From: Fimbriimonadales bacterium
GTDB lineage: Bacteria > Armatimonadota > Fimbriimonadia > Fimbriimonadales > JABRVX01
Length of the DNA stretch: 29,288 bases
NCBI GenBank assembly: GCA_045862955.1
Contig: BTVI01000038.1
Location: 1-29,288 of the forward strand
Direction of reading: 5' to 3'
Part shown: in pieces, positions 17,278 to 29,288 of the stretch
How the letters are laid out: the number at the start of each line of letters is the position of its first letter
Numbering within the stretch: position 1 is the stretch's first letter
Notes under the pieces: generated by a model
What the model saw: the letters and a program-made list of their open reading frames with translations, nothing else
Told to the model about the DNA's origin: nothing
The model's database searches: none
Position numbers and translations under genes: made by a program

Positions 17278-17548
17278 GATACCGTGGGGGGGTGCCCCGG
17301 CGCGGTCCTTCGGTTCGATTCCGGTGCTCCCTGACTGCTAGTAGGCGGACGCGGGCCGGGGCATGGAGTCCCGTGATGATGCAGTGGGGGCGGCTGAAGC
17401 ATGGTGAGCGAGACGCGTCGCAGGGACTGCGAAACTACCGGGTGGGAAGGAACGATTTGAAGGTAGGTCGCGTTCGCCTTTTCGTACGCATGTTTAGCGT
17501 AGCCACGGATTGGTCCCGGCAACCCGGGACGGAAAGGAGCGGCAGAAT

Positions 17549-19171
17549 ATGATCGTTCGAAGCGTTACGTACCTCGTTTCAGCGACTGCACTGGCTGTGG
17601 GGGCGTTCGCGCAAACCCTCGTGGACCCGAACCTCACCTTCGACACGGTGGTCTCCGGGCTGACAACTCCCATTTCCATCGCCTTCCTCGATGCGGACGA
17701 TTTCTTGGTGATCGAGAAGAGCACGGGACAGGTGAAGCGTGTCCAGTCGGGTTCGGTCACCGCGACGGTCCTCGACCTTCCGGTAATGAGCAACAGCGAG
17801 CGGGGACTGCTCGGCATGGCCCTGCACCCCGACTTCCCTGCTACGCCGCATGTCTTCCTTTACTACTCGCGCTCGACGGGCGGGGCGGACAACGTGTCCT
17901 GGGAGGATAATCGTGTCGAGCGATTCACGTGGACCGGCACGGCGCTAACCGACCCGCAGCTGATCATCGCCTTTCCGCCTAGCTCGCTCGGCAACGGTCC
18001 GAATCATGACGGCGGGGTGATCCTGTTCGGCCCTGACGGCAAGCTGTACGGCGTGACCGGCGATCTGAACCGGAACGGCTACGAGCAGAACAACCAGAGC
18101 GGTCCGGTCGCCAACGTGGGCGGCATCTTCCGTCTGAATCCCGACGGGTCCATCCCCTCGGACAACCCGTTTGTGGGCGATGGGCGCCCCGAGTTCGAGC
18201 GGCTGGTCGCCTATGGCGTCCGCAATAGCTTCGGAATGAGCTTCGACTCGAAGACGGGTATGTTGTGGGATACGGAGAACGGTCCCACCTCCTACGACGA
18301 GGTGAACATGGTTCCGTTCGGCTTGAACAGCGGGTGGAACAAGATCATGGGGCCGGACGACCGGGACCCACAAGGGCTCGGCGACCTGTACATGATCTCG
18401 GGAGCGTTCTACCGGGACCCGGACTTCAGTTGGCTCTCTCCCATCGGTGTTACGAGCATAGTCTTCCTGCATTCGGCCAAGTTCGCGCCTGGACTGCGCG
18501 ACCAGTGCATCGTGGGGGACAACAACTTCGGACAGCTCTATCGTTTCGACATGAACTCCAACCGGGATGGCTTCGTGCTCTCCGGAAGTTTGGCTGACAA
18601 GGTTGCTGACAGCGCTACCGAGCGCAACCTCGTTCGCTGGGGCACCGGCTGGGGCGTCGTCACCGACTTGAGGATCGGCCCGGATGGGAACCTGTGGCTC
18701 ACTTCTCTGTCCCTCGGCAGAGTGTATCGAATCCGGGCGGTAACGGCTCCTGATACTTTAGCGGGCAAAGTGACGCTGGGGAGCTACGGCGGGGTTCCGA
18801 CCGGGGTGCCGCTCAGCATCGAGCTTCGGACGGGAGACACGGTCGTCGAGACGCTGACCACGACGGTCGGTGCGTTCGGCGAGTATTACGTTTCGCCGTC
18901 GTCGGCTGGGACGTTCGATGTGATTGCGAAAGCGGGACACTGGCTCTCGGTGCGCCACGACGGTGTGAGCATCAGTGGGGACGTGGTTCTCGATCTGAGC
19001 TTCCCTTACAATGGCGACGTCGACGGCGACGACCTGATCGGGCTGGCCGATCTGAACACTGTGCTGCTAGATTTCGGGGGCACGGCTGCGGACATAGACG
19101 GCAGCGGCCAGACGGATCTCTCGGACCTGAGCACCATCCTGATTAACTTCGGTAGGGCAGGCGAAGGTTAG
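17549..19171 (+). CDS. Secreted PQQ-dependent sugar dehydrogenase (GSDH/YliI family) with a C-terminal X-module + dockerin-like domain
   Basis: SD AAAGGAG; signal peptide ending AFA; ERGLLGMALHPDF, NHDGG, FGPDGKLY, YGVRNSFG, TENGP..DEVN; two Ca-loop-like repeats GDVDGDDLIGLADL and DIDGSGQTDLSDL. Confidence 0.9.
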   Translation: MIVRSVTYLVSATALAVGAFAQTLVDPNLTFDTVVSGLTTPISIAFLDADDFLVIEKSTGQVKRVQSGSVTATVLDLPVMSNSERGLLGMALHPDFPATPHVFLYYSRSTGGADNVSWEDNRVERFTWTGTALTDPQLIIAFPPSSLGNGPNHDGGVILFGPDGKLYGVTGDLNRNGYEQNNQSGPVANVGGIFRLNPDGSIPSDNPFVGDGRPEFERLVAYGVRNSFGMSFDSKTGMLWDTENGPTSYDEVNMVPFGLNSGWNKIMGPDDRDPQGLGDLYMISGAFYRDPDFSWLSPIGVTSIVFLHSAKFAPGLRDQCIVGDNNFGQLYRFDMNSNRDGFVLSGSLADKVADSATERNLVRWGTGWGVVTDLRIGPDGNLWLTSLSLGRVYRIRAVTAPDTLAGKVTLGSYGGVPTGVPLSIELRTGDTVVETLTTTVGAFGEYYVSPSSAGTFDVIAKAGHWLSVRHDGVSISGDVVLDLSFPYNGDVDGDDLIGLADLNTVLLDFGGTAADIDGSGQTDLSDLSTILINFGRAGEG

Positions 19172-21357: not shown

Positions 21358-24300
21358 CTAACGCATGGCAGAGGCGTGCATCAGTGAACCGAGAAGGTCT
21401 GCGACGTGTGCAAGTCCCCTACCACCCGTGAGCTGCTGCAACCTGCGGTCAGCGTCAATCGGTCCGATCCGGTTCGTAGCGAAGTCCTCCATCACGCCGC
21501 GAAGTCTCTGCAAGTACTGTCGCTGCGCTGGCGGCATGCTCGACAGCACATTACCTAACTTCGAGTCCAGCTCTTTCACGAGTCCCCTGCAGTTCTCCTG
21601 CATAGTGTTGTAGCGACCGAGAGATGGGTGTTGCGCAGGAAGTTCGTTCACCTTGAACTTCGCCACCTCGCCTGCCTGAGAAGCCCACTTGGGGTCTACT
21701 CTGGAGATGAACACGCTCCTCTCGCCCTTGCGGCCCAGCCATGCTAGGTCCTTGTACGCCTCGGGGTGTCCGCTGGTAGTGAAGTTGACGAACGCTTGGT
21801 CTGGGTTGCGCCCTGTCACCTTCTTATATGCCTCTTCGAGGTACTTCTGCCCGGCTTCTTGGAAGTGGTGAGGACTGCGCGGCTCACCGTTCTGCGTAAG
21901 TCCCTGCCGCCACGCCGCATACTCCGGGTTGGGAACCGGCTTGCCACCCTGTATGATATATCGCGGAGGCTCGACCGCCCCGAGGTCCATGTCCATGCTA
22001 GCTCTCCCGGCACTCGAGGCGTTTCGGAACTCGCGGATTTTCTGTGGGCTCCAGCCTTCTCGCTTCATGATAGCGTCCAACTCCGCCTTGACTTTGCCGT
22101 TGATCTGGCGCTCGTGGGAGCGGTACCAGTTTCCTAGTTTGGCATCTCCGGCTCGGACTGCCTGGTTGAGCTGCATCTTCGCGGCGAACGAAGACTTGAT
22201 AGCTGCGGCGGCGTCCTCGGCTTCGCGTCGCAGCTTCTCTATGACATCTCTGGAAGCGCCGGACTTCCCTGCCTCCGCGAGCTTCTCGGCCCTGCTCTTG
22301 AACAGTTTCACGAGAGCACGTCCGTTGGCTGCTTCGCTCTGGAAGCGGGCGGCTTCGATCTGCTGCTGGACGGTGGGCCACTTTCTGGTACTCGGAACGC
22401 CTTGGGAACTCTTGCCCGCCATTGCTCCTGTGATCGACCCGATCACACGTTTCAGCACGAACGAGGTCGCAGCAGCCTTTGCCACATCCCATGCGGCTCC
22501 TGCGATGCCAGACCGCTCGTAGCCGTCATAGGCCGATACTGCCAGATAACCAACCTGGCCCAGAGACTGGACTCCCTGTTTGAGTGCTTTGGTAGGTCCG
22601 CCTCCGACGTAGCCCGTAGCACCCATATAAGCACTATAGATGAGTGGTCCGCCCGCAAAGGAGGCAACGAACATGGCGTTGTCCGCAAGGGACTTGATCT
22701 CTTGGGCCTTCTCCATGCAGTAGTTGGCAGTGTCGGCCTTCTCCTGCTCCTTCGCCATCTCGCCACTCCAGTGCGCCTGCACTCGCTCACCGACCAGACG
22801 AACGGCATTGCGCATCTGCTCCATGTCTCGGGTAGCCATGGTTTCGGCGTTCAGGTGCCTATCCACGAAGGCTCGCAGGTCTCGCCGCTGCTCGTAAGGG
22901 AGCATCTCGAGAAGCCGCGGTACCGCCGCCTGAAGTCGCGTTATCTCTGCCCACTCTTGCGCCATTTCCCTGCCCTGCGCGGCCATGCGCTGTAGGCAGT
23001 ATGCGTCGAACTCGGTTCTGGTTCTGATCCACTCACCGGTCTTTACGCGCTGAATGGCATCTTCCTCGGCCTGGATGTTGGACCGCGCGCACATGAGTTG
23101 CCACTCGATCGACTCACGCGATGCGGGGTCCTTCGCATCGGCCAGCTGTCGCTCTAGCCCCCGGATGCGGTCTCGGAAGTAGGCTATGTTACCTTCGTGG
23201 AATTGGATCTGCTGCTCGTTCGCCTTTCTTTCGAGGTCGGCCAACGACTCCTCGATTGGGTCCTCGGCGATCTCCTCGTCCTCGCCCGCATACACGTACA
23301 CATAGTGGCGGAACGACTGCGCAGCACGACCCGACGTGGCCGCCCAAGTGTTGTCCTCTGCCTTGAACTGTATGCGGAATCGCGCACCAGGAGTGGCGGG
23401 GGGCAGTGCCAGCTTGACCGTCTTCTCGTCGGAGATTTGGCCGCCCACCGGACGATAGTCTTTGATACGTAGGAACTTGTCCGAGTCCACGGTCAACCCT
23501 GCTACGTAGTAGTGGGTATAGCCGTCCTGCTCGTACTTGCGGGTAGATGGCGCCATGCCAACGAATGGCGAGTCCACGGTGAGATAGAGGTTCAGACCGC
23601 ACACCGCGCCAGGGCCTCCCCCGGCGAGGCTCTCGATGTCCCCTTGCACATCGTCCGTTAGCACGAGTCGGATATCGAACGGCTCGTTGGGGCGAATCGT
23701 GGCGGGCGGGATCGACCAAGCGACAGTGGTAATACGGTTGCACTTGCCGAGGACGCGGCCACCGGACATACTCCCCTGGCCTCCCGTGGTGGCGTTCACT
23801 TTCAGCGAGTTATCGGTGAAGGAGACATCGGGAGTGAAGTCGTATCCGGTCTGACCCCTATCATCCTTCTTTTCCACCTTTTCTAATCGCCACACTCCCG
23901 GCGTAGCGGCTTTCTCTGCCACTATGATGGTAGTGGTAGCCTTAGCGATCAGCTTCTTCGTTTTCGGGTCGGTGGCCGTGGCGGTACCCGTGTAGGTGCC
24001 GGGCTTGTCGAAGATGCGCCCGATGGGTTCCATTCCACCCGTCAGCGACTTCCCGTCGCTGAACTGCCAGTCGACCTGTACGCCGCTCGGTAGGTTCTTG
24101 CCCACGGGAGTGAGCACGACTTTCTTGTTCAGTTCCGCTTTGGCTTTGGCGGGCTTGATGGCGAAGCTGGGCAGCAGCTTCTGGGTTTCATCGAGAAGCG
24201 ACTTGAAGCGTCGCCTCGCCTCCTCTTTCTGCGCCGCTGGGTCGGGTGGGTCACCCAGCGCACTGATCTCCTGGCGAAGCGACTCGAGCTCTGCGAGGAG

Positions 24301-25995
24301 TGACTTGATCGCCTCCATGTGCAGCCTGCCGAGCTCGACGGCCTCCAGCGCGCCCTCGTCGTCACCCAATCCCGCGCAGGTTGCGGCTTCGAGCTGAGCT
24401 TGGTCGAAAGCGATCACGGCCTCTGCGAGGGCGCCACGTACCTGCAGATACCGGTCGAGCAGTGGGAGCAGTTTTTCGAGGTACTCGATGGCCTCGGGTG
24501 AAGGATGGTCGAAGAACGGTGCCCACTGCGCGCTGAAGGCTAGGTCTTCTTGCGGGCTCATCTCCCCATAGACCAAGCGCATCGCCTCTACGACCGCGCT
24601 CACGAGTCCCGTGTACTGCGCCTCGGTCATGCTCCGGATCTCTATGTCTGGGGTTAGGCGGACGGGAGGGGTGTTAGTGAGAACGAGCGGCGGAGGCATC
24701 GAGCTCGGGGGCTCCAGAGAGTAGGTCGGGAGGTCGAACAGCACGTTCGTAGTGGCATCTGCAACGGCAGGGGCCTCTCCGCGCACCTCGGCCAACCGGT
24801 TCTTCAGGCTCGCGATGACGATTTCGTCCCTCGGGTTGGCGCGCTCGCAGAGCTTCAACGCCTCGGCCAGCAGATTCTCGGCCTCCTGGTTTTTGCCCTG
24901 CTGGTGCAGGCACCACCCGAGTGCGCTCGCGGTGATCGGCCAATCGGTGGGGTCCTTGCCGTTCAGCTCTTCTTTGCGCTCAAGCGCCTCACGAAGCACC
25001 GGCTCCGCCTCTGTGAGCTTGCCGAGGTCCCGTAAGGTGATGCCGAGGTTGTTGAGCAGGTGGGCGTAGAGGATGCTCTCGGTTGCCCTAGCTCGTTGAT
25101 AGATACGGCGTGCTTGGAGCAGGATCGGCTCCGCCTCGGAATGGCGCTTCTGGATGGTGAGAATGGAGCCGAGGAGTCTGAGGTCGTTGCCCGACTCGAT
25201 GGAGCCTACGCCATAAGCGCCCTCGCTGATTGCGACGGCCTCGTGAAGGACCTTGATCGCCTCGGAGTCCTGCTTCTGGTTGAAGAGGCACAAGGCGAGG
25301 GTGGAGGTGGCCTGCGCATGCTCCTTCGTGCCGTAGCCGAAGCGGGACTTGGCCAAGTCGATCGCCTGGCGTGCCAGATCTGCAGACTTGGGGTCGGACT
25401 TCGCCTTGTTGGCGGCCTCGATGAGTGCGTTGAACTGCTTGCGGTCATCTGCCGAGGGCTTGGGGCGGGGTGGAGAGCCGGGCTGTGCCCACGCCGAGTG
25501 GGAGAGCACCTCGAGCGAGCCCACCATCGCAGGGAGGCCCGGGCCGCCGGGCAACCTACCGGCATACAGTGGGCTGCCGGAAAGCAGAGGCTCCATCCCC
25601 GCCTCTACCGGGGAGCCGTCTCCGACCGCCATCCACACCCGGTTGCCGATGCGCCGAATGGTGATGTGTGCCGAGCCTTCGCTGGGCAGAGGGGCCGCAG
25701 TGAGGCTCTTCCATCCGCCGTCTTGCCATTCGAGAAGGGGTACGCGCTGTTCGGTGATGGATAGGCGGATGGCGCCCCGTAGCCCCGGATCCCCGGATTG
25801 GATCACCGCTCCAGGCTTCTCGCAACGAATGGCCAGTTCGAGTGCGAAGTCGGCGACGGGATAGACGTCATCGAGCAATACGGATGCCGAAGCATCGCGC
25901 AGTTCGATGGGATCGGTTTGCTGCGCGTGGGTGGCGATGGCGGCCAGCAGCAGGATTGGGATCAGCCGGCAGATACCCAGGCTCGGATTTTGCAT
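21358..25995 (-). CDS. Large secreted multidomain protein (1545 aa): signal peptide, degenerate LamG-like domain, TPR repeats, helical region, PKD domain, coiled coil, Gly/Ala-rich hydrophobic segment, unknown C-terminal domain
   Basis: SD GGGAGGAG before ATG 25995; LIPILLLAAIATHA signal; TPR e.g. LNNLGITLRDLGKLTEAEPVLREALE; PKD-like VDWQFSDG..FDKPGTYTGTATATD. Confidence 0.85.
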   Translation of the reverse strand: MQNPSLGICRLIPILLLAAIATHAQQTDPIELRDASASVLLDDVYPVADFALELAIRCEKPGAVIQSGDPGLRGAIRLSITEQRVPLLEWQDGGWKSLTAAPLPSEGSAHITIRRIGNRVWMAVGDGSPVEAGMEPLLSGSPLYAGRLPGGPGLPAMVGSLEVLSHSAWAQPGSPPRPKPSADDRKQFNALIEAANKAKSDPKSADLARQAIDLAKSRFGYGTKEHAQATSTLALCLFNQKQDSEAIKVLHEAVAISEGAYGVGSIESGNDLRLLGSILTIQKRHSEAEPILLQARRIYQRARATESILYAHLLNNLGITLRDLGKLTEAEPVLREALERKEELNGKDPTDWPITASALGWCLHQQGKNQEAENLLAEALKLCERANPRDEIVIASLKNRLAEVRGEAPAVADATTNVLFDLPTYSLEPPSSMPPPLVLTNTPPVRLTPDIEIRSMTEAQYTGLVSAVVEAMRLVYGEMSPQEDLAFSAQWAPFFDHPSPEAIEYLEKLLPLLDRYLQVRGALAEAVIAFDQAQLEAATCAGLGDDEGALEAVELGRLHMEAIKSLLAELESLRQEISALGDPPDPAAQKEEARRRFKSLLDETQKLLPSFAIKPAKAKAELNKKVVLTPVGKNLPSGVQVDWQFSDGKSLTGGMEPIGRIFDKPGTYTGTATATDPKTKKLIAKATTTIIVAEKAATPGVWRLEKVEKKDDRGQTGYDFTPDVSFTDNSLKVNATTGGQGSMSGGRVLGKCNRITTVAWSIPPATIRPNEPFDIRLVLTDDVQGDIESLAGGGPGAVCGLNLYLTVDSPFVGMAPSTRKYEQDGYTHYYVAGLTVDSDKFLRIKDYRPVGGQISDEKTVKLALPPATPGARFRIQFKAEDNTWAATSGRAAQSFRHYVYVYAGEDEEIAEDPIEESLADLERKANEQQIQFHEGNIAYFRDRIRGLERQLADAKDPASRESIEWQLMCARSNIQAEEDAIQRVKTGEWIRTRTEFDAYCLQRMAAQGREMAQEWAEITRLQAAVPRLLEMLPYEQRRDLRAFVDRHLNAETMATRDMEQMRNAVRLVGERVQAHWSGEMAKEQEKADTANYCMEKAQEIKSLADNAMFVASFAGGPLIYSAYMGATGYVGGGPTKALKQGVQSLGQVGYLAVSAYDGYERSGIAGAAWDVAKAAATSFVLKRVIGSITGAMAGKSSQGVPSTRKWPTVQQQIEAARFQSEAANGRALVKLFKSRAEKLAEAGKSGASRDVIEKLRREAEDAAAAIKSSFAAKMQLNQAVRAGDAKLGNWYRSHERQINGKVKAELDAIMKREGWSPQKIREFRNASSAGRASMDMDLGAVEPPRYIIQGGKPVPNPEYAAWRQGLTQNGEPRSPHHFQEAGQKYLEEAYKKVTGRNPDQAFVNFTTSGHPEAYKDLAWLGRKGERSVFISRVDPKWASQAGEVAKFKVNELPAQHPSLGRYNTMQENCRGLVKELDSKLGNVLSSMPPAQRQYLQRLRGVMEDFATNRIGPIDADRRLQQLTGGRGLAHVADLLGSLMHASAMR

Positions 25996-26166
25996 AAAAC
26001 TCCTCCCGAGATCACCGGCGCGGGTGCGGTTCATTAACATGAATCGGCAAACGCGAGAGGGATACCCAGTGTTCGTCCTGGCTGCTTCGAGGATGGGTGG
26101 GGAGGTTCCCACAGCACCCTTGGGGGCGCGTCGGATGTGGGGTTAGCAAGTTTTTCTCCAGTGGGC

Positions 26167-26195
26167 TTGCAAATCTGCGAGTTCTGTGTTAGTAT
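26167..26195 (+). promoter_or_regulatory. Sigma70-type promoter, TTGCAA-N17-(TGn)TAGTAT
   Basis: -35 TTGCAA at 26167-26172, extended -10 TG at 26187-26188, TAGTAT at 26190-26195. Predicted TSS about 26202. Confidence 0.65.
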
Positions 26196-26845
26196 GTTGT
26201 CAATCGGGAAGAAAGCCTCGTTGCTTGCGTAACTGATCGGTGACATTACCTCCGTACGCTTCTACGAGACTTTACTGATTGATAGCAGGAAGCAGACCGG
26301 TTTCGACTGCGAAAGCCGTTAGTTCTGGTGTAGAGTTCCTGCTTCTCGACAATAGTTCGGCTCGAACTCGCCGAGTTCGGAGTCCGAATAGGTTCGTGAA
26401 ATGGTTTGGGAAAGAGAACCCCCGATGCGAGCGGTCCGCGATACCCTGGAAACCGGCGGCCCGAGCGGCGCCCGTCCCCGGCTGCGGGTTTATCCCGCGG
26501 GTAGGGGGCGCGCACGCAGCCGACGTTCGAGGTGCGGTCCGCTTGCTGCTGAGGATCTCCGACCCCCGACGAGCCGAGTGCTTGTGATGACAAGCCATTC
26601 GACGAAGGGGCGCGCGGCTAGGCCACCGCGCGCCCCTTGCTTCAGGCATCCCTACGGTCTGCTTGCAGGCAGACCCCTTCTTCCGCGAAGCGTCACCTTA
26701 CTGGAAATGGAGGACGCCCAAGTTGTTAAAACGTGACCTCCAGCGCCCTCGTTCCAGAAGCTTTCGCGTCGGCCTCCCCTCGCGCAACCTCCTCCTAGGC
26801 GCCTCGCCGGGCACCGCGACGACTCGCGAGCGCTTCCGGGCTCGC
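26196..26845 (+). ncRNA. Candidate long structured RNA (5' leader or independent ncRNA); no family recognised
   Basis: Nested and tandem helices tile the region, many with G-U pairs that work only on the + strand (pairings listed in findings). No convincing CDS. Confidence 0.55.
26605..26638 (+). terminator. 13-bp GC-rich hairpin inside the leader (possible attenuator or terminator)
   Basis: AAGGGGCGCGCGG-ctaggcca-CCGCGCGCCCCTT followed by GCTTC (weak U tail). Confidence 0.55.
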
Positions 26846-26918
26846 ATGCTCCCCGCACGCCCTCTCGCTCCATTCAGCTTCCAACACTTCTGCTCAATGA
26901 GGAGGATCAGAATCTTAG

Positions 26919-29288
26919 ATGAAGCGAACGAATCTGCTTCACGTCGTCTTCTGCGCACTGCTCTTGATGGGCAGCGCAGCACTACACGCCCAGGCACCGA
27001 TCTTCGATCGTGGCCTTCCGACGGCGAACCTGAACAACGCTGCCGGAGCGGACCGGAGCAACGTGGCATGGGGCTTCGGCTACGATGCTGGCCCGCCGCC
27101 AGAGGGCAACAACGAGTGGTTTAGCGGAGATGACTTCGTACTGCCGGCGAACGCCCATGGCAAGGTATGGCGTGTGACCAAAGTACGTATCTGGGCCGTC
27201 GCCGGCGCTGCCGGGGACCCCAATTTCAAGTTGGGTGACCGGTACTATCGCGTCACGCTCTACGGAGCAGGTGGACACGGAGCGATCGTGCCTATCAAAT
27301 CTGGTGACATCGGAGCCGGCACCAATACCGCACTGATACCTGGCACGAGCACGCCGAACCCAGACATCGTCTTCACGCCGGTTCAGTATTCAGGTGGATA
27401 CGACTACCAGGGCAGCTCTGGCGCATACCTCCAGATCTGGCAGACCGACTTTTCGAACTGCGACTGGCTCGTTCCCGGCGGACAGCCGATCCGCTTCGGA
27501 GTTCATGGCCTAGTCTATGACAACGTGAACCATGTGTGGTTCAACCACGCATCGAACGCGGCACGGAGTGGCTCGACACAGGACGGCGCGGACGATCTGA
27601 TGCGGTACTTCTATATCCATAACTTGGAGAGTGGCGATGGGCTCTGGAACTCCCATGGATACGGATGGGACAAGTCCAGCGACATCAACGTGCAGGTTTG
27701 GGCCGAAGAGGTGGAGTTGCCGCTACCCGGCTTCCCCGTAGACCTCAACGGCACCTACATCTGCCCGAGTATTACTGATGCCGGCCTCTCCTATCCGGGC
27801 ATCGCGATGGCTTCCACGATGGCCGATCCGTACTTCGGACAGGTGATCGAGCGGAGCGGTCCGGGCTCTCCGGTCTGGAACCCGAACGTGCTCGAGGGCA
27901 CCCATACTCCGTTCTCCGATGCCGTGAAGCCACCCAAGCTCTTAATGGTGCCAACGATAGGGGTGTGCTGTGCCGCCGATCTCGATCTGTCTGGAATGTG
28001 GAATTCCACCGACGACTTCGGGATCGCGCTCGTAGACGGCACGGTTGTCGCCGGGATCCGAGTGACAGACACTGGGGCTGGGTACAAGTTGGAGCTTGCT
28101 AGCCGGCTCGTGGGCCCACCGTGGACGCTCTCGCTGGGCGGCACGCCGTACACTGCGAATGCCGACGAGACCAGGTTCCATGTGCGGCTGCACGTGTACA
28201 CGGACGGCGGCCTGTTGGCTTATGTCACTCCGCTCAACGGCACGAACGCCGGCAAGGAGCAGGACTTGGCGCAGACCGGGCAGTGGGTTCCTAGCCCGGC
28301 GCTCGGCGCTAACGTCGCGTTCACCGCAGGGTTCACCTCGATGAGTCCAAAGGCGCTGGCGGTTGCTGGCATCACTAACTTCCAGACTAACAAGCCGGCA
28401 GACGTCATGTACCTGTTCTCGGACGATCCATACGTGAAGTCCGCAGAGCTGATCGGCTATCGCTTCGGGATGGCCAACATGGCGCAGAGCGCGTTCGGCT
28501 ATCAGGCTTGGCTGTCTTCTGCCGGCGCACAGGCGTACTCCGGTGGAGGCTACACCGCATTCCCATATCCGTTCCACATCCAGCCATTCGGGGCAGCGAT
28601 CGACGGACAGGTGGGATATGGTTCGCCTCCGGTGTATGTGGACTCCTCGCTGGCGCTGTACGCGTTCTCTCCCACTGCGCAGGGTACTGCGTGGATGTGG
28701 CTCAACACGAACAGCGGTCCGCCGAACAACTTCCCGACGCGCTGGACCAACACATTCGGGCAACCGATCTATCCGTTCGACTTCCTCACTGGTGACGCGG
28801 CGCATCTGGAGTTGTCGAATGGGATCGTCGTAGATGACACGGCGCCGACGTTGACAGGTCTGGTGGCGACGCAGTCGCACGGCAACGTGCTGAACGGCGC
28901 GCAGCCGGTGATGCTCGGCAACCTCACGATCTGCGTGGATGCCACGGACGTGGGGCCGCTCGTGAATGGCTCGGGACTGGCTAACAGGCCGCTCATCTCC
29001 ATTCCGGAGTTCGGCATCAGCAACCAGCCGATGTATTCGGGCACGGGGAACACCTTCTGCTACGACTACACCGTGACGAGTCTGACACCCTGCGGCACTG
29101 CCAACATCACCATCACTGCCGAGGACGACGCGGGGAACGCGGCAACGCCGGCTACCGGTACGCTGACGGTGAACACCACCAACGTCAACATCACCGTCCA
29201 GATGGCAGGCGGCTTCGCAGCCGGACCGGTTACGCGAGAGATCCTGTTCACCGTCGGTGGAACGGGAGGGTCCAACCCGCCGATCACG
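26919..29288 (+). CDS. Large secreted multidomain surface protein, at least 790 aa, truncated by the window end (absent from the ORF track)
   Basis: SD GAGGAGG at 26899-26905, ATG 26919, open to the window end: MKRTNLLHVVFCALLLMGSAALHA|QAPIFDRGLPTANLNNAAGADRSNVAW...GWDKSSDINVQV...YVKSAELIGYRFGMANM...IVVDDTAPT...ITITAEDDAGN...FTVGGTGGSNPPIT. Confidence 0.9.
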   Translation, partial: MKRTNLLHVVFCALLLMGSAALHAQAPIFDRGLPTANLNNAAGADRSNVAWGFGYDAGPPPEGNNEWFSGDDFVLPANAHGKVWRVTKVRIWAVAGAAGDPNFKLGDRYYRVTLYGAGGHGAIVPIKSGDIGAGTNTALIPGTSTPNPDIVFTPVQYSGGYDYQGSSGAYLQIWQTDFSNCDWLVPGGQPIRFGVHGLVYDNVNHVWFNHASNAARSGSTQDGADDLMRYFYIHNLESGDGLWNSHGYGWDKSSDINVQVWAEEVELPLPGFPVDLNGTYICPSITDAGLSYPGIAMASTMADPYFGQVIERSGPGSPVWNPNVLEGTHTPFSDAVKPPKLLMVPTIGVCCAADLDLSGMWNSTDDFGIALVDGTVVAGIRVTDTGAGYKLELASRLVGPPWTLSLGGTPYTANADETRFHVRLHVYTDGGLLAYVTPLNGTNAGKEQDLAQTGQWVPSPALGANVAFTAGFTSMSPKALAVAGITNFQTNKPADVMYLFSDDPYVKSAELIGYRFGMANMAQSAFGYQAWLSSAGAQAYSGGGYTAFPYPFHIQPFGAAIDGQVGYGSPPVYVDSSLALYAFSPTAQGTAWMWLNTNSGPPNNFPTRWTNTFGQPIYPFDFLTGDAAHLELSNGIVVDDTAPTLTGLVATQSHGNVLNGAQPVMLGNLTICVDATDVGPLVNGSGLANRPLISIPEFGISNQPMYSGTGNTFCYDYTVTSLTPCGTANITITAEDDAGNAATPATGTLTVNTTNVNITVQMAGGFAAGPVTREILFTVGGTGGSNPPIT

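Follow-up and report, generated by a model that had tools for sequence, protein, structure and literature searches.

A conserved, uncatalogued non-coding element of about 580 nucleotides, likely transcribed into RNA, ahead of a secreted-protein operon in a Fimbriimonadales bacterium

The window analysed here, 29,288 nucleotides (nt) long, is contig BTVI01000038.1 (C38) of a Fimbriimonadales genome (assembly GCA_045862955.1, hereafter G000; 3.36 Mb, 62.7% G+C). The gap between a divergent gene for a TPR/PKD protein on the minus strand and an open frame that starts at 26919 on the plus strand harbors a non-coding element that is conserved, belongs to no catalogued family and measures about 580 nt from its likely transcription start. 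The element is real and is likely a plus strand RNA; we infer the strand from a promoter placed exactly where conservation begins, from a GNRA loop kept in this orientation and from the fold of the central rod. As to its role, we tentatively favor an attenuator-type leader RNA, unusually large, for the operon of secreted proteins downstream. The comparison genome (G001) comes from the same genus and its proteins are named Fimbriimonadia by their source; we take the phylum of both genomes to be Armatimonadota. By their records, the sequencing runs with this stretch are metagenomes from bioreactors, sludge and aquatic settings.

The only homologue found lies at the same locus in G001, and a search for further homologous upstream regions, as advised in a first-pass annotation of this DNA, gave this one copy and no third in the genomes searched. 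The conserved stretch runs from 26163 to 26777 and aligns without insertion or deletion over 615 columns. Both of its ends are sharp, conservation opening at the −35 box of the promoter and stopping at 26777. Identity to G001 is 24 of 63 positions upstream of the element and 29 of 37 in the promoter part. It is 64% in the 5′ domain (122/190), 86% in the centre (185/215) and 93–97% in the 3′ parts, that is, 129/139 in the 3′ domain and 33/34 in the long hairpin before it; between 26563 and 26712, 145 of the 150 bases are identical. The linker to the start codon has 90 identical columns among 144, with several indels. The leader of about 715 nt drawn in the first-pass annotation is therefore too long, since conservation ends at 26777 and not at 26918, and the hairpin that it placed at 26826–26845 falls in the poorly conserved linker.

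The neutral yardstick for the two genomes is 55% identity at 39,717 fourfold-degenerate sites, and across 386 kb of G001 identity is 82.6% overall and 64% at third codon positions. Because the centre and the 3′ part exceed these yardsticks, strong purifying selection on both is indicated. Second codon positions in the same 386 kb reach 94.5%, and the 6S RNA and the signal recognition particle (SRP) RNA of the same genome pair are 96% and 98% identical. The identity of the 3′ part is reached by 58 of 7635 windows of 208 nt. An intergenic-identity control was left unused, being too noisy with unmasked genes left in it.

On the plus strand, the 5′ domain (26200–26389) is variable with conserved islands. 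It contains a small hairpin (26239–26250) and the helix 26285–26291/26336–26342, each with one two-sided change, and a loop of GNRA type at 26311–26314, which is GAAA in G000 and GCAA in G001, so that the GNRA form is kept. The GC-GAAA-GC cap described earlier at 26309–26316 can indeed pair, at a mere −0.1 kcal/mol when taken alone. A short direct repeat, 26233–26245 and 26275–26287, 42 nt apart, is closer to exact in G001, and either copy can pair with the 5′ end of the RNA. The central domain (26390–26604) comprises a long irregular rod, at about 26404–26570, followed by a hairpin at 26575–26601; the consensus rod has 3 two-sided changes, a number not above the null (p 0.16). Next comes a 13-bp G+C hairpin (26605–26638; −28.7 kcal/mol) whose weak U tail extends to 26646, likely a 3′-end hairpin that either terminates transcription or blocks decay. 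The 3′ domain (26639–26777) folds into the hairpin 26656–26675 and nested helices at about 26697–26768, ends in a CCTCC run complementary to a Shine-Dalgarno (SD) sequence, and has a folding z-score (z) of only −1.7 alone.

In the linker (26778–26918) the ribosome-binding site, 26899–26905, is predicted to be paired in either genome, but the partners differ and are not conserved; a conserved anti-SD switch was rejected on this ground. Also rejected was a leader peptide downstream of the SD-like run at 26709, since by eye the two genomes agree neither in its start codon nor in the frame it has relative to the gene. Inspection by eye also revealed no enrichment of GGA that would make a CsrA-type array.

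Folded against shuffled controls, 26196–26918 gives z −3.84 on the plus strand and −3.80 on the minus strand, and 0 of 20 shuffles folds as well; the structure reported in the first-pass annotation exceeds chance on both strands. The stretch 26196–26604, which excludes the long hairpin, still gives −4.4 (plus) and −3.8 (minus), showing that the excess does not come from this hairpin alone. For comparison, 25 random windows of 409 nt from the genome range from −2.4 to +1.7, and the 6S, RNase P and tmRNA of the same genome give −4.0, −2.4 and −0.8. The central domain, 26390–26604, folds to −3.7 on the plus and −2.1 on the minus strand, and 26639–26918 to −1.0. Among windows of 150 nt, only 26525–26750 is clearly under −2.5 in both genomes; the folding signal upstream of it must therefore come from long-range pairing. 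Consensus folds of the whole element give −5.0 (plus) and −5.2 (minus).

Helices with a high predicted probability that both genomes retain are 26239–42/26247–50, 26285–91/26336–42, 26575–26601, 26605–26638, 26656–26675 and 26701–06/26752–57. The rod survives as well over 26414–26559, including 26428–34/26539–45, 26436–40/26533–37, 26457–60/26519–22 and 26482–88/26494–500. All 11 long-range or nested helices given in the first-pass annotation, and the hairpins listed with them, can pair where it placed them, 26377–26385/26553–26562 needing a bulge. Several are nonetheless unsupported by the homologue, as the 5′ closing helices and 26377–85/26553–62 break in G001. The latter helix is also broken by a G-to-A variant at 26380, seen in one RNA run and equal to the G001 base. 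Helix 26355–64/26570–79 keeps 8 of its 10 pairs and costs 10–17 kcal/mol relative to the free fold. The G-U pairs, taken earlier as a sign of selection on the plus strand, make up 10 of the 122 pairs; 7 one-sided changes keep pairing and 6 produce A.C, hence G-U pairs do not fix the strand.

A likely sigma-70 promoter occupies 26167–26195 on the plus strand, with the −35 hexamer at 26167–26172, a TG at 26187–26188 and the −10 hexamer at 26190–26195 (alternatively 26193–26198). The sequence TTGCAA-17-TAGTAT with TG before the −10 is present as claimed earlier, and by eye it resembles the type found before the tRNA genes of this genome. To call it a good promoter was too generous: it has 8 of 12 matches, which lies under the threshold of our scan (0 sites called), and in G001 the −35 hexamer is invariant and the −10 is not kept, while both genomes share a TAnnTT hexamer placed 3 nt further downstream. 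Transcription would probably start near 26200–26205. With the start so placed, the element occupies a leader position between the promoter-like site and the operon, and the layout in G001 is the same. No promoter-like site was found between element and gene, either by the scan or by eye; the operon therefore probably reads through the element. An imperfect inverted repeat (26163–26184, −10.9 kcal/mol) covers the −35 box and may be an operator, or an RNA hairpin if the start lies further upstream. G001 keeps 20 of its 22 bases, and both changes preserve plus strand pairing (G-U/G-C); the repeat holds 17 invariant bases.

The stretch or a part of it is contained in 20 of the 24 listed runs, of which 6 are RNA runs. 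Three RNA runs and one DNA run were compared, all picked for words of 26100–27400. RNA-library contigs from three studies cover 26239–26646, 26253–26612 and 26212–26541 at an identity of at least 99%, in line with the earlier proposal that an RNA is made. For the coding parts of 25300–29288, the three RNA runs gave no close-matching contig, whereas the DNA run covers 27 of 30 bins. That the RNA of the element outlasts or outnumbers the mRNA was considered and dropped, as contigs cannot rank levels, the runs had been chosen for 26100–27400 and a housekeeping control is absent. The DNA run has a hole at about 26513–26803, over the G+C-rich hairpins. The right ends of the RNA contigs (26541, 26612 and 26646) are therefore no firm guide to termination.

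The earlier statement that the element matches no known Rfam family stands. The best match to Rfam 15 within 26100–26950 scores 19.9 bits against a cut-off of 41.2 (E 0.45), and nothing falls on the element in the whole window or at the G001 locus, with riboswitches, T-box, OLE, ROOL, GOLLD, HEARO and raiA included. The genome has its tmRNA, RNase P, SRP and 6S genes elsewhere, on C2, C18, C23 and C7 respectively, confirming that the element is none of these. A group I intron was rejected: RF00028 finds no match in G000 or G001 at E 1, the P4/J4-5-like stretch 26404–26420 is followed by no recognizable P7 (by eye, against the consensus), and the contigs of four runs contain no splice joint. 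The same applies to a group II intron or a HYER-type RNA without open reading frame, RF00029 giving no match at the locus in either genome. In an ANTAR target RNA, a pair of short hairpins each has a six-base AnnGnn loop, and the terminator overlaps with the second of them. One such loop is shared here (26400); it lies 200 nt from the hairpin and has no conserved partner, and this candidate was dropped too. ANTAR response regulators number 2 in G000 (L202 on C24 and L206 on C1), 2 in G001 and 1 in a genome of the same family (G002).

The element occurs once in G000 and has no match in phage and plasmid collections. BLAST against 61 relatives matched 4, including the own genome, and the two besides G000 and G001 are matches of 27 and 47 nt. 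Among 228 genomes of the class, 18 matched at E 0.01, all but G000 and G001 over at most 47 nt; among 401 genomes of the phylum there were 3 matches, two of them short. Two covariance models, R1 (26570–26780) and R2 (26390–26580), which are weak because each is built from two sequences, matched 4 and 2 genomes among 151 relatives and 3 and 1 among 151 genomes of the phylum; searches of 5 picked genomes each revealed no third copy. Six weak R1 matches were discarded as partial, to a lone hairpin or inside coding frames. Exact-pattern scans returned 17 loci in metagenomes (one 19-mer only), 10 in genomes and 0, 15, 26 and 0 in viral collections, none of which extends past the pattern. We found no description of the element in the literature searched, which did not include supplementary files; the motif tables of PMC5737381 could bear on its novelty.

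The long hairpin 26605–26638 is the most conserved of 14 long hairpins (the 13 others 0.60–0.93, one unaligned). G000 has 418 perfect stems of at least 11 bp, and the 70 longest listed are mostly without U tails. As U-poor stems are usual in this genome, 26605–26638 looks like an ordinary 3′-end hairpin. A recurring palindrome family with near-identical copies on C8, C11, C12, C15, C21, C22, C33 and C47 may be REP-like.

A candidate antiterminator strand is predicted at 26252–26266, complementary to 26603–26617 at 13 of 15 positions. It lies inside a conserved island of the variable 5′ domain (13/15), and both changes in G001 keep the pairing. When the RNA is cut at 26625, the consensus pairs the 5′ arm of the hairpin with 26252–26263 at a probability of 0.90–0.98, and before the 3′ arm exists this alternative helix costs 0 to 3.4 kcal/mol relative to the free fold. 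Ten of the 13 arm bases pair far upstream, a number reached by 1 of 24 controls (12 other hairpins on both strands; 10/16). The site is the best shared one upstream, with a marginal p 0.047 against shuffles of the 5′ domain. If the arm has a second partner, the extreme conservation of the hairpin would be expected.

The attenuator-type leader that we tentatively prefer would operate as follows. Transcription would start near 26200–26205, and the RNA would fold into the variable 5′ domain, a rod of about 170 nt and the hairpin. By default, the 13-bp hairpin 26605–26638 would form, and a stable RNA of about 440 nt would be released or left by decay. In the other state, 26252–26266 would capture the 5′ arm (26603–26617) before the 3′ arm is made and close the upstream domains into one large junction; the polymerase would then read through the 3′ domain into the three paralogues of about 1000 residues and the genes behind them. 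The trigger would most likely be a protein or a ligand binding to the invariant core, about 26391–26420/26554–26601. Start, strand, termination, alternative helix and switching are all predicted only.

Several observations weigh against such a leader. Only two sequences stand behind it, and the two-sided changes do not exceed what column shuffling yields, whichever segment or strand is taken, a result of low power with two sequences; the covariation check suggested earlier thus came out null and refutes nothing. Among the 122 pairs of the first-pass helices, 95 are unchanged in G001 and 27 are changed, 9 of the latter being kept (2 by changes on both sides) and 18 broken. The kept pairs equal the null (p 0.66), and the broken pairs are modestly fewer than in a block-matched null (18 vs 26, p 0.02). 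The stretch 26570–26777 folds slightly better on the minus strand (z −5.3 vs −4.5 on the plus), and the 3′ half as a whole folds there as well or better. The tail of the hairpin has 4 U in 8 and the terminator scan is negative; judged against the whole upstream region, the antiterminator site falls short of significance (p 0.44). Once the 3′ arm is present, the complete hairpin wins by 14–21 kcal/mol, and a switch would therefore need kinetics or assistance. The 129 of 139 bases conserved 3′ of the hairpin are unneeded by a simple attenuator, and the inverted repeat over the −35 box and the invariant complementary segments 26400–26408/26591–26599 and 26422–26429/26765–26772 remain unexplained by it. 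Strand, ends and level cannot be read from the contigs, and DNA may be present in an RNA library. No trigger, ligand or partner protein was identified, and related arrays in 16 other genomes work without the element.

What the leader leaves unexplained keeps two rivals in play. The stronger, which we regard as possible if doubtful, is a stand-alone structured RNA of about 440 or 580 nt: a new class that works either in trans or as part of a ribonucleoprotein and has only the promoter in common with the operon. The long hairpin would be an internal helix, and the invariant segments would form pseudoknots (26400–26408/26591–26599 together with 26393–26397/26602–26606, and 26422–26429/26765–26772). 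The near-housekeeping conservation in the 3′ half and to either side of the hairpin, the 615 columns free of indels with their sharp ends and the RNA-library contigs from three studies agree with it. So does the conservation of the element in G001, where the first gene has an in-frame stop, and so do the related operons that lack the element, which is therefore not needed for their expression. However, with 2 genomes and one locus, cis and trans action are indistinguishable, and known large RNAs spread over many genera or phyla, as the accessible part of PMC5737381 records for ROOL. No conserved 3′-end hairpin follows 26777, the candidate pseudoknots are invariant and thus devoid of covariation, they cost 5–9 kcal/mol as nested alternatives, and a 14-of-16 long-range duplex arises in 22% of shuffles. 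Rather unlikely is a bolder form, in which an ornate RNA of about 580 nt, again a new class, would use its near-invariant 3′ half as a pseudoknotted ligand-binding or catalytic core and refold between a terminated state of about 440 nt and a full-length state licensing the variable surface-protein array, with enough RNA made to assemble from community data. A constitutive booster, either an mRNA stabilizer of the S-layer kind or a device that loads the polymerase for processive read-through of hairpins in the manner of conAn2, EAR and put, is less likely again. It would suit the downstream operon, which is long, encodes large secreted proteins and has each gene followed by a strong hairpin; conAn2 regions measure 260–600 bp and are poorly conserved between genera in the available portion of PMC8191782, and structured 5′ untranslated regions (UTRs) stabilize S-layer mRNAs in that of PMC3666127. 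Neither a specialized NusG paralogue (G000, G001 and G002 have one NusG each) nor a small conAn1-like gene directly upstream on the plus strand was found; this does not exclude the mode of action, because EAR and put act without such a protein factor. A stabilizer needs a 5′ hairpin, yet the 5′ part is the least conserved here, and stability does not require 200 near-invariant nt.

The strongest folding signal comes from near-perfect palindromes and is strand-neutral, covariation is absent, the element is restricted to a genus as an insertion would be, and both species occur in bioreactor or sludge samples according to the run records for the G000 sequence. Such a pattern could have its cause in the DNA or in history: the palindromes may bind proteins in a cluster, an intron relic or a mobile element since domesticated may have inserted behind the promoter, or the two species may recently have exchanged a short tract. 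We consider it improbable, for the element is single copy, no terminal repeats were seen, group I and II intron models do not match, the contigs show no joint and identity grades smoothly from 64% to 97%. Moreover, 9 of the 12 changes in 26570–26777 lie outside predicted stems (9/106 vs 3/102, p 0.14), and the long-range rod reaches z −3.7 on the plus strand. A minus strand RNA, serving the divergent TPR/PKD gene as its leader or acting antisense to gate the plus strand hairpin, is very unlikely. The z values of 26570–26777 slightly favor that strand (−5.3 vs −4.5), 6 changed pairs become A.C on the plus strand and the contigs are unstranded, but no promoter-like site lies upstream of 26777 on the minus strand (scan of G000; both genomes by eye), conservation opens exactly at the plus strand −35 box, and the GNRA loop and central rod favor the plus strand. 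Least credible of all is a small protein gene. The frame 26401–26736 (111 residues) is open in both genomes with the same start and stop, is called by gene predictors and annotated in G001 as a hypothetical protein, and shows a slight excess of changes at third positions (10/10/17). Against this, its codon changes are 9 synonymous and 20 non-synonymous, its third positions are 85% identical compared with 64% in real genes, none of the six frames has a coding pattern, and 72 scored candidates include no other relative.

The gene behind the element (26919–29288, plus strand) encodes the first of three tandem secreted-type paralogues of about 1000 residues, with a signal peptide recognized by eye, a swappable N-terminal domain and a dockerin/EF-hand-like C-terminus. 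It had been called giant; the contig cuts its frame at 790 residues, and members of the family have about 970–1180. Contigs C38, C93 and C75 share identical ends of 141 nt and carry the three paralogues in tandem, each with a different N-terminal domain, and a strong hairpin follows each operon gene. The G001 orthologue (L009:2255–3025, L012:2262–5255) has 998 codons and an in-frame stop after codon 256. This stop is a TGA at the border between N-terminal domain and core; the G000 gene encodes tryptophan at this codon. The split form is recorded from several contigs, and G000 has a tRNA-Sec. Because the N-terminal domain of the single G001 copy is 80% identical to that of the first paralogue and its core 83% identical to that of the third, the sequences suggest collapse or shuffling by recombination. 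The tandem arrays may reflect cassette-type variation of a surface protein.

The core of these proteins is found in 21 of the 228 genomes of the class, often in tandem. Among the 21 aligned family members, Dockerin_1 is present in 10, EF-hand_6 in 11 and a few Ig-like families weakly. A single core sequence matched no solved structure, and its best Atlas value, 0.79, is a lead only. Nineteen upstream stretches of related arrays from 16 other genomes, some of which may not reach the first array gene, gave no nhmmer or R1 match; R2, run on 7 of the 19, had a best E of 0.089 in a coding region, and sliding z in 14 upstream regions never fell below −2.8. As far as searched, the element is thus an addition in this genus. 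In G002, a gap of about 445 nt (L134:9001–9540), with a repeated 9-base palindrome, separates a likely promoter from the first gene of the array. As a homologue this gap was rejected, being unrelated (score 28 vs 25 ± 3.4) and not unusually folded.

On the other side of the element, the divergent gene (21358–25995, minus strand) encodes a protein of 1545 residues with Pfam matches to TPR and PKD. The exact protein is present in the collection, and the gene stands at the same place in G001. The protein consists of TPR repeats, one PKD domain and a long C-terminal half without assignment. Further away, a tRNA-Arg(ACG) call at 18258–18336 falls inside a predicted GSDH-family frame (17510–19171), and one of the two calls may be wrong.

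Leaders of the terminator/antiterminator kind include transcription-terminating riboswitches, T-boxes and protein-controlled attenuators. The element resembles them in its order of promoter, structured leader, strong hairpin with a predicted exclusive upstream partner, and operon. It differs in having no Rfam family, about 350 nt between the competing strands, a weak U tail and 139 conserved nt after the hairpin, and in that switching is predicted only.

Few bacterial non-coding RNAs exceed 500 nt; those known act as ribozymes or housekeeping machines or have no function assigned so far. From its inferred start, the element has the size and conserved sequence of a large ornate RNA (at least 500 nt), with about 580 nt and 64–97% identity by domain. 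In the parts of PMC5737381 and PMC12054373 available, ROOL has a mean length of 581 nt and OLE about 600 nt; these and GOLLD (also PMC12286853, likewise in part) share with the element such a size, a multi-domain predicted fold and possible pseudoknots. Unlike them, the element lies between a promoter and an operon in one genus only, has no covariation support and no score to their Rfam models, and is without match in phage and plasmid collections. With conAn2, EAR and put, as described in the accessible part of PMC8191782, it shares the form of a cis RNA of several hundred bases, poorly conserved across genera, that heads a long operon with internal hairpins. There conAn2 needs an upstream protein to act at a distance, whereas the present locus, in a different phylum, has no conAn1-like gene, NusG paralogue or sequence match. 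The long folded leader before large secreted surface-type proteins recalls the 5′ UTRs of Lactobacillus S-layer genes (PMC3666127, in part); here, however, the conserved core lies inside the element, its 5′ end is variable, and S-layer identity is putative. The strong hairpins that separate the dockerin-like genes recall cellulosome operons, in which stem-loop processing sets stoichiometry according to the portion of PMC4423207 available.

These conclusions are limited to two genomes, lack covariation support and use predicted ends. Even so, structure probing and cryo-electron microscopy have a concrete target in this uncatalogued RNA-like element, whose core matches second codon positions in conservation and which comes from a phylum that has received little study. 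If it is a leader, the spacing of about 350 nt between the competing strands and the conserved domain past the terminator would be unusual for an attenuator. The attenuator-type reading would then point to a new sensing RNA that controls a surface array varying by tandem duplication and domain swapping.

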